DNA from: Escherichia coli
GTDB lineage: Bacteria > Pseudomonadota > Gammaproteobacteria > Enterobacterales > Enterobacteriaceae
Assembly (NCBI RefSeq): GCF_003334335.1
Contig: NZ_QOWQ01000166.1
Reading direction: 5' to 3' (one strand)
Length of the DNA: 632 nucleotides
In this document: positions 1 to 632 of the stretch, piece by piece
Layout: the number at the start of each line of letters is the position of its first letter
Position numbering within the stretch: position 1 is the stretch's first letter
Position numbers and translations under genes: made by a program
The notes under the pieces: generated by a model
Told to the model about the DNA's origin: nothing
What the model saw: the letters and a program-made list of their open reading frames with translations, nothing else
Database searches by the model: none

Positions 1-62
1 CCGCAGGCGCTTACGACCAGCGGCAACGTCAGCGCGCAGAGTTTCATTTTCAGCTCTCGCAT
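1..62 (-). CDS. Rz1: o-spanin outer-membrane lipoprotein, lambda Rz1-like, embedded in the +1 frame of Rz (partial)
   Basis: Minus-strand ATG at 62..60, with a second in-frame ATG at 47..45, in the +1 frame relative to Rz. Translation to the window edge: [20 protein letters not shown]. This is a lipoprotein-type signal peptide with a lipobox-like VVSAC, the Cys codon at 5..3. It closely parallels the lambda Rz1 N-terminus as I recall it (MLKLKMMLCVMMLPLVVVGC). An embedded out-of-frame o-spanin inside the i-spanin gene is the established lambda arrangement. Confidence 0.8.
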
Positions 63-282
63 CGGCTAATTCCCTCGAGTATCTGGCATCAAGTGCAGCA
101 ACATCACGCTGGCGCTGCTGCATATCAGTAATGGTTGCATTTGCCTGCTCCAGCTCACTGACTTTTTTATCGCGCTGCTCTTTGTAGGTTATGGCGTTAT
201 CACGGTAATGATTCAGCCCCAGACTAAGCACACCACAGGCTACCAGCATGACAATAATCACCACACACAGAACACGGTTCAT
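1..282 (-). CDS. Rz: i-spanin, lambda Rz-like (N-terminal 94 codons; 3' end lies beyond the window start)
   Basis: Minus-strand ORF with ATG at 282..280 (complement), open to position 1. Hand translation: [94 protein letters not shown]. It has a short N-terminus, one hydrophobic signal-anchor helix, then a charged, Ala/Arg/Glu/Gln-rich segment typical of the periplasmic coiled-coil of i-spanins. Several blocks match lambda Rz as I recall it ([37 protein letters not shown]). Not in the ORF track, presumably because it is truncated by the window edge. Confidence 0.9.
71..76 (-). promoter_or_regulatory. Shine-Dalgarno-like element (GAGGGA) upstream of the Rz1 start
   Basis: On the minus strand GAGGGA lies 8 nt upstream of the Rz1 ATG at 62..60. 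It sits inside the Rz reading frame, as expected for an embedded gene. Assigned on sequence complementarity and spacing only. Confidence 0.35.
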
Positions 283-283
283 A

Positions 284-370
284 TCACCACCAACGAATTG
301 CCCAGACCAGAACAGCAATGGCCACAATACGAATGGCAAATGCCATTGCCCGAATAAGTTCAGCACTCAT
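284..370 (-). CDS. small single-helix hydrophobic peptide, 28 aa, function unknown (paralog C of a tandem triplet)
   Basis: Minus-strand ATG at 370..368, TGA at 286..284. Translation: [28 protein letters not shown]. Short polar N-terminus, then a hydrophobic helix with an Arg/Trp C-terminal end. It aligns without gaps to the neighbouring ORF at 382..498 (RAMAFAI versus RALAFAI). The stop is 1 nt from the Rz ATG. Below the ORF-track length cutoff. The upstream SD is weak (AAAAAG), so expression may depend on coupling. Confidence 0.5.
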
Positions 371-381
371 CTTTTTAAAGT

Positions 382-498
382 TCACGATTTCAGCGCAATG
401 ACCAGTTTTGCCAGCCCATACAGCATCGGAGACACAGCAATACCAACAGCCACCCACTTAATAGCAAAAGCCAGCGCTCTGCTGATGTCATCAGTCAC
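382..498 (-). CDS. small single-helix hydrophobic peptide, about 38 aa, function unknown (paralog B of a tandem triplet)
   Basis: Same frame as the ORF-track entry 382..597, but I place the start at GTG 498..496; an alternative GTG at 504..502 overlaps the upstream stop as GTGA. Stop TGA at 384..382. Translation from GTG498: (M)TDDISRALAFAIKWVAVGIAVSPMLYGLAKLVIALKS. The portion of the track ORF upstream of 504 (CDCRYFIFTNAGCSFSVPRLGDVVF...) is not helix-like and is antisense-frame overlap with the better-supported ORF at 501..632. The N-terminus MTDDIS and core RALAFAIKWVAV match paralog C, and VGIAVSPML matches paralog A. Confidence 0.5.
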   Translation of the reverse strand: MTDDISRALAFAIKWVAVGIAVSPMLYGLAKLVIALKS

Positions 499-500
499 TG

Positions 501-632
501 TCACCCCAGCAGCCCCGACGAAGACAACATCACCCAGGCGAGGGACAGAAAAAGAGCAACCAGCATTAGTGAAAATGAAATACCGACAATCACACACAGG
601 ACCTTTGCCGGCGTTATGAGTTTGTCTGACAT
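501..632 (-). CDS. small single-helix hydrophobic peptide, 43 aa if the ATG at the window edge is the true start, function unknown (paralog A of a tandem triplet)
   Basis: Minus-strand ATG at 632..630, exactly at the window edge, so upstream extension cannot be excluded. Stop TGA at 503..501. Translation: MSDKLITPAKVLCVIVGISFSLMLVALFLSLAWVMLSSSGLLG. Polar N-terminus with two Lys, then a hydrophobic stretch of about 26 residues. The N-terminus MSDKLI parallels MTDDIS and MSAELI in the next two ORFs, which supports this ATG as a genuine start. Core VGISFSLML matches VGIAVSPML in paralog B. Not in the ORF track. Confidence 0.45.
   Translation of the reverse strand: MSDKLITPAKVLCVIVGISFSLMLVALFLSLAWVMLSSSGLLG

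Follow-up and report, generated by a model that had tools for sequence, protein, structure and literature searches.

A 632-nt stretch of Escherichia coli DNA, hereafter the window, carries on its minus strand three small ORFs (ORF1 to ORF3), the 5′ part of the i-spanin gene Rz and, within Rz in another reading frame, the beginning of the o-spanin gene Rz1 (Table 1). Read on the minus strand from 62 to 1, the sequence is ATG CGA GAG CTG AAA ATG AAA CTC TGC GCG CTG ACG TTG CCG CTG GTC GTA AGC GCC TGC GG, which means that the part of Rz1 in the window comprises the whole 19-residue signal peptide, the codon of Cys20 and only two further nucleotides. The ORF runs on past window position 1 and has 61 codons in the records that contain an identical window. 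A TAG triplet two codons 5′ of the first ATG closes the Rz1 frame, and hence this ATG is the earliest possible start. The tetrapeptide VSAC agrees in a pattern test with the lipobox consensus [LVI][ASTVI][GAS]C (PMC6139136). By a second pattern test, the Rz1 N-terminus also passes a PROSITE-style lipoprotein-signal rule. In E. coli, the Lol pathway sorts lipoproteins to the outer membrane when the residue at +2 after the lipid-modified Cys is not Asp. Since the +2 residue after Cys20 is Gly rather than Asp (Thr in lambda), outer-membrane sorting is implied.

Table 1. Positions of features in the window and of the complete Rz1 ORF in two records with an identical window
Feature	Position	Strand	Remarks
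ORF1	632..501	-	43 aa; phrog_4906
ORF2	504..382	-	40 aa from GTG; phrog_1115/3246/4493
ORF3	370..284	-	28 aa; phrog_4493/3246
Rz (i-spanin), 5′ part, codons 1-94	1..282	-	starts with ATG 282..280, leaves the window at position 1
Rz N-terminal transmembrane segment, residues 4-23	273..214	-	mean KD 2.97
GAGGG, Shine-Dalgarno-like	76..72	-	9-10 nt upstream of first ATG; same place as lambda AAGGAG
TAG stop in the Rz1 frame	68..66	-	two codons 5′ of first ATG
Rz1 (o-spanin), 5′ end	1..62	-	codons 1-20 plus 2 nt
First ATG of Rz1 (M1), probable initiator	62..60	-	invariant in 83/83 loci; homologous to lambda Rz1 M1
Second in-frame ATG (M6)	47..45	-	15 nt downstream of first ATG; homologous to lambda Rz1 M6
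Lipobox V17-S18-A19-C20	14..3	-	Cys20 codon TGC at 5..3
Rz1, full ORF	L001 4571..4756 and L002 4571..4756 (locus numbering)		corresponds to window 62..1 and beyond

The host gene Rz is identified by its matches to PF03245 (E = 3.5e-49) and phrog_13 (E = 2.1e-76) and by 67% identity to lambda Rz, with C99 and C153 aligning with C99 and C152 of the lambda protein. The i-spanin features present here comprise the profile match, an N-terminal transmembrane domain as expected for type II topology, and the conserved Cys residues. From the 67% identity to lambda Rz, the transmembrane segment is probably followed by coiled-coil 1, which in lambda Rz comprises residues 27-87. The distance between the two start codons, 282-62 = 220 = 3x73+1, places Rz1 in the +1 frame relative to Rz with its ATG at Rz codon 74 and hence, by homology to lambda, presumably inside coiled-coil 1. 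The preliminary description of this DNA, made from the letters of the window, had proposed two in-frame ATGs and a lipobox Cys codon at precisely the coordinates that the minus strand gives, in an Rz1-like ORF embedded in the +1 frame and beginning within the coiled-coil region of Rz. The 220-nt offset bears out the frame, and codon 74 indeed falls within the lambda-homologous coiled-coil 1. Likewise, the spanin identity that it had assigned is upheld by the profile match of Rz and its identity to lambda Rz.

The Rz N-terminus (282..214, minus strand) itself fits the lipoprotein-signal rule through the motif LVAC16 with Gly at +2, the Cys16 codon TGT lying at 237..235. This motif is kept among close relatives, while lambda Rz does not fit the rule. 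As a true lipobox it was rejected, given that such a motif arises in 7-17% of composition-matched shuffles of the transmembrane segment, and it is most likely a coincidence within a transmembrane domain rich in Leu, Val, Ala and Cys.

Continuation of Rz1 and its surroundings in identical records

The window is matched at 100% by phage PhiR5_1 (PV340545, 24331-24962) and by several E. coli chromosomes. The continuation of Rz1 was taken from two such records, PhiR5_1 (L001) and the prophage of E. coli 2018-166 (L002, RefSeq NZ_CP075632). In both, Rz1 is a 61-aa protein composed of the 20 N-terminal residues followed by GSTPPAPVPCVKPPAPPAWIMQPAPDWQTPLNGIIS[S/L]SE[N/S]G, and it occupies nt 221-406 of an Rz gene of 468 nt (PhiR5_1) or 495 nt (E. 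coli 2018-166), with its stop codon within Rz about 60-90 nt before the Rz stop. The two records already differ at the first base beyond the window, A in PhiR5_1 and G in E. coli 2018-166, and it is for this reason that we infer the exact continuation in the source DNA. Rz1 is intact in either continuation, as it is in each of the other 80 relatives. An early in-frame stop just past the window edge, or a mature part poor in proline, had been named beforehand as observations that would speak against Rz1. No such stop occurs in PhiR5_1 or E. coli 2018-166, where the ORF stays open to 61 aa, and in both the mature protein contains 11 Pro in 42 aa.

From locus position 4633 onward, which is the first base past the window, the two records diverge. 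Rz ends at L001 4818 as a 155-aa protein terminating in ...YIREQCLR and at L002 4845 as a 164-aa protein terminating in ...YIRTQCTKLAFYYPEDI, and the downstream genes also differ, with a Nu1-type terminase in one record and another terminase in the other. The 41 unique Rz genes comprise 29 of 468 nt, 11 of 495 nt and that of lambda with 462 nt. This distribution and the divergence indicate that Rz contains a joint of mosaic recombination, located distal to Rz1 or around it.

The gene order is the same in both records, namely a class II holin, lysozyme, a KilAC antirepressor, three small ORFs, Rz/Rz1 and terminase. The minus strand of the window is the sense strand of this late/lysis region, in accordance with the operon direction proposed in the preliminary description. 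The small and strongly hydrophobic ORF1 to ORF3 fill 632..284 on this strand, between the antirepressor gene and Rz, and have no counterpart in lambda, where R directly overlaps Rz. The PHROGs that they match are of unknown function, the ORFs themselves bear the label 'hypothetical', each in some 1000 contigs or more, and Pfam gave no match for ORF1 or for the long form of ORF2. Start calls for ORF2 vary, with PGAP placing it at 537..382 (51 aa) and PhiR5_1 at 498..382. The PHROG profiles, at 67 and 90 positions, are longer than ORF2, which aligns with their C-terminal part only. Moreover, the stop codon of ORF1 overlaps the GTG of ORF2 in GGGGTGA at 507..501, and ORF1 and ORF2 may therefore constitute one longer gene in other phages. 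ORF2 (DISRALAFAIKWVAVGIAV) and ORF3 share 35% identity and 69% positives over 26 aa (E = 2e-4) and appear to be weak, diverged tandem paralogs. A coding test of ORF1 to ORF3 had just 11 variable sites among 9 unique sequences, the close relatives varying too little. It may be speculated from their position in the lysis cassette that the three ORFs encode small membrane proteins, possibly related to lysis.

On the plus strand, a 123-aa ORF at 248..619 lies antisense to the small-ORF region, and further antisense ORFs of 76, 106 and 70 aa lie over the Rz/Rz1 overlap at L001 4446..4676, L002 4564..4884 and, in lambda (L003), 1267..1479, respectively. These antisense ORFs look like by-products of a biased composition of the sense strand. 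Outside the window, a background lipobox scan revealed a second ORF with a lipoprotein signal (MKMKRNLPLIILLSSLVMGC-TQHKTDMP...) at a distance of up to 1.5 kb from Rz in about 10 IMG/VR loci (within L004-L083).

Comparison of Rz1 with known spanins

The family tests of Rz1 used the full ORF from the records with an identical window. The 61-aa protein matches Pfam PF06085 Rz1 over residues 20-60 (E = 2.1e-21) and phrog_3198 'Rz-like spanin' (E = 1.3e-30), and it shares 67% identity with lambda Rz1 (E = 1e-25). In NCBIfam, no family was found with Rz1 at E <= 0.01, and Rz gave only sub-threshold LysB and MreC matches. This absence is regarded as a gap in the library and not as negative evidence.

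For the comparison with lambda, Rz and the embedded Rz1 were extracted from J02459. In both systems, the +1-frame gene Rz1 begins at nt 221 of Rz, spans 0.47-0.87 of it and ends within it. Positions 1 and 6 are Met in both Rz1 proteins, Cys9 falls in the signal peptide of each, and Cys20 is the lipobox residue, in keeping with the earlier description of a lambda-like arrangement. The motif KPPxPPAWIMQPxPDWQTPLNGIIS is common to them. A periplasmic Cys is also shared, with C30 of the present protein aligning with lambda C29, the residue that forms the homodimer disulfide. Read beyond the window in L001 and L002, the proline content of mature Rz1 (26%) is similar to that in lambda (10/41). The penta-proline stretch of lambda, P32-P36, is represented here by PPAPP, with the Ala at position 34, which is the only position in the lambda stretch that tolerates Ala (PMC5295617; PMC6139136). 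Other differences include the lipobox with its following residue (VSAC-G here, VVGC-T in lambda), a post-Cys linker that is one residue longer and contains more proline (GSTPPAPVP versus lambda TSKQSVSQ), and the Shine-Dalgarno sequence, which is GAGGG here and AAGGAG in lambda. At the level of gene order, Rz and the end of R overlap in lambda, whereas about 1.4 kb with the antirepressor gene and the three small hydrophobic ORFs separates the lysozyme gene from Rz here. The Rz1 proteins of Stx-converting lambdoid phages and E. coli prophages are the same as the present one or share at least 88% identity with it, and the differences concern annotation only, with no biological difference.

Among spanins outside this group, P2 LysB/LysC, T4 PseT.3/PseT.2 and T1 gp11 likewise combine an outer-membrane lipoprotein with an inner-membrane anchor for disruption of the outer membrane (PMC6139136). 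However, the genes are overlapped in P2 and separated in T4, whereas the o-spanin stop codon described here lies inside the i-spanin gene, giving the embedded architecture in which the o-spanin gene is wholly contained in the i-spanin gene in an alternative frame, as is the case in 83/83 loci. The LysC Pfam match of Rz1 is marginal (E = 0.16), and the LysB NCBIfam model stays far under its cutoff (18 vs 92.75 bits). T1 gp11 is a u-spanin and differs from the present Rz1, which is without a C-terminal transmembrane domain. Rz1 ends in ...NGIISSSENG with no hydrophobic C-terminal segment of the kind that marks a unimolecular spanin, and hydropathy over 19-residue windows peaks in the signal peptide. 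Taken together, 62..1 on the minus strand of the window is almost certainly the beginning of an o-spanin gene, the Rz1 of an E. coli phage or prophage that is lambdoid and of the Stx-phage type. The gene lies wholly within the +1 frame of Rz, and no observation contradicts this reading.

Initiation codon and selection on both frames

Conservation was followed in 83 loci, consisting of 80 IMG/VR contigs found by searching with the Rz protein, PhiR5_1, E. coli 2018-166 and lambda. Rz was located in all of them by tblastn anchoring, while anchoring on the motif NHYRDNA missed 15. An ORF of 60-61 aa with a PPAW core, the lipobox and the first ATG is kept in 83/83 loci.

The first ATG is likely to be the main Rz1 initiator on account of its better Shine-Dalgarno sequence, its invariance and the phenotype of a lambda mutant. 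GAGGG forms an anti-SD duplex of -6.4 kcal/mol, a value within the top 7% for positions across the gene, whereas the pairing of the second ATG is weak (-3.0 kcal/mol). The second ATG is replaced by TTG in 2/83 loci while the first remains unchanged, and in lambda Rz1 the M1K substitution causes a lysis defect although M6 and M7 remain (PMC5295617 Table 3). Initiation at the second ATG, alone or together with the first, would yield a 14-residue signal peptide and the same mature protein. Such a start agrees with the retention of M6 in lambda and in 81/83 loci and with the lipoprotein rule, which still fits from M6, the Cys then being residue 15 and the n-region having a single Lys. Nevertheless, position 15 is the lower limit of that rule, and with the weaker pairing, the TTG variants and the loss of lysis in lambda M1K all speaking against it, this start is considered unlikely. 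Conservation of M6 may also reflect a constraint from the overlapping Rz codons (Glu-Asn). Use of both ATGs, resulting in two precursors with the n-regions MRELKMK- and MK- and in one mature lipoprotein, is likewise unlikely. If true, it could adjust how fast or when Rz1 is exported in relation to Rz.

It can further be asked whether the cassette is still in use. At least 80% of the window is present in 615 of 5,426 complete E. coli genomes, the number of places per genome having a median of 2 and reaching 12, and most of these matches are chromosomal prophages. These counts, together with the splitting of the R-Rz junction by about 1.4 kb in this lineage, would be compatible with a decaying cryptic prophage in which Rz/Rz1 persists as an intact-looking remnant that is out of use. 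However, the window matches at 100% the complete 51-kb genome of phage PhiR5_1, for which E. coli C is recorded as the propagation host, neither ORF is disrupted in any of the loci, and the substitutions exhibit purifying selection in both frames, which leaves a cryptic remnant very improbable.

The selection on both frames was assessed from the third codon positions of Rz, which are the second positions of Rz1 codons, so that a drop in diversity is expected in the overlap if both frames are selected. Using 40 unique Rz sequences with lambda excluded, third-position diversity was found to be 0.035 in the overlap as compared to 0.152 upstream and 0.191 downstream, an about 4-5-fold drop. Variable third positions amounted to 14/62 in the overlap and 44/92 outside (Fisher p = 0.002; p = 3e-5 when lambda is included), these p-values being approximate for sequences that are related to one another. 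This dual-coding signature shows that the Rz and Rz1 frames are both under purifying selection. In codon-shuffled Rz, a +1 ATG-initiated ORF of at least 61 codons arises in 6% of cases, and a +1 ORF of at least 40 aa that carries a lipoprotein signal arises in only 0.2% of 20,000 shuffles. Hence, although length by itself is not decisive and the gene is unannotated in both identical records, a chance open frame in Rz that encodes no functional protein is scarcely conceivable. It is effectively refuted by the conservation and dual-coding data, namely the intact ORF in every locus and the wobble suppression specifically within the overlap, and the rarity of such a frame with a lipoprotein signal, the Pfam Rz1 and phrog_3198 matches and the identity to the experimentally characterised lambda Rz1 also speak against it.

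Proposed function and annotation status

By analogy with lambda, in which the spanin mechanism has been described (PMC5295617; PMC6139136), Rz and Rz1 would both be translated from the late lysis transcript, with ribosomes initiating internally at the first Rz1 ATG via GAGGG. The 61-aa precursor would then be exported, Cys20 would be lipid-modified, and signal peptidase II would remove the 19-residue signal peptide. The mature Rz1 would be taken by the Lol pathway to the outer membrane, and there it could bind Rz, an inner-membrane protein, at the C-terminal part that Rz extends into the periplasm. Once holin and endolysin have acted, the Rz/Rz1 complex would fuse the inner and outer membranes as the last step of lysis. 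Lipoylation, outer-membrane localisation, complex formation with Rz and a role in lysis are accordingly predicted for this Rz1 from the lambda precedent (PMC5295617, PMC6139136).

The Rz/Rz1 feature is already known, as the two are textbook overlapping genes and the exact protein is deposited, in line with its characterisation as established biology in the preliminary description. At NCBI, some records give proteins with the exact 61-aa sequence the name 'Rz1 family lipoprotein', while others list them as 'hypothetical protein'. A full-length relative of Rz1 is encoded in 399 phage records. A minority of the Stx-phage records sampled carry an annotation of the o-spanin, and Rz1 is unannotated in GenBank PV340545 (PhiR5_1) and in the PGAP-annotated RefSeq chromosome NZ_CP075632. 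The PhiR5_1 record designates Rz as 'endopeptidase Rz', an outdated name for a protein that is now regarded as a membrane-fusion spanin subunit. In a survey of 677 phage genomes, 196 o-spanins were listed as 'not identified' (PMC6139136). The missing annotation of Rz1 is therefore a database gap and no evidence against the gene, since embedded o-spanins are known to be overlooked by gene callers. The value of the finding therefore lies in annotation. It settles the strand and the identity of the lysis cassette in the window and flags a real gene that both identical public records leave unannotated, as do most of the Stx-phage records in the sample.
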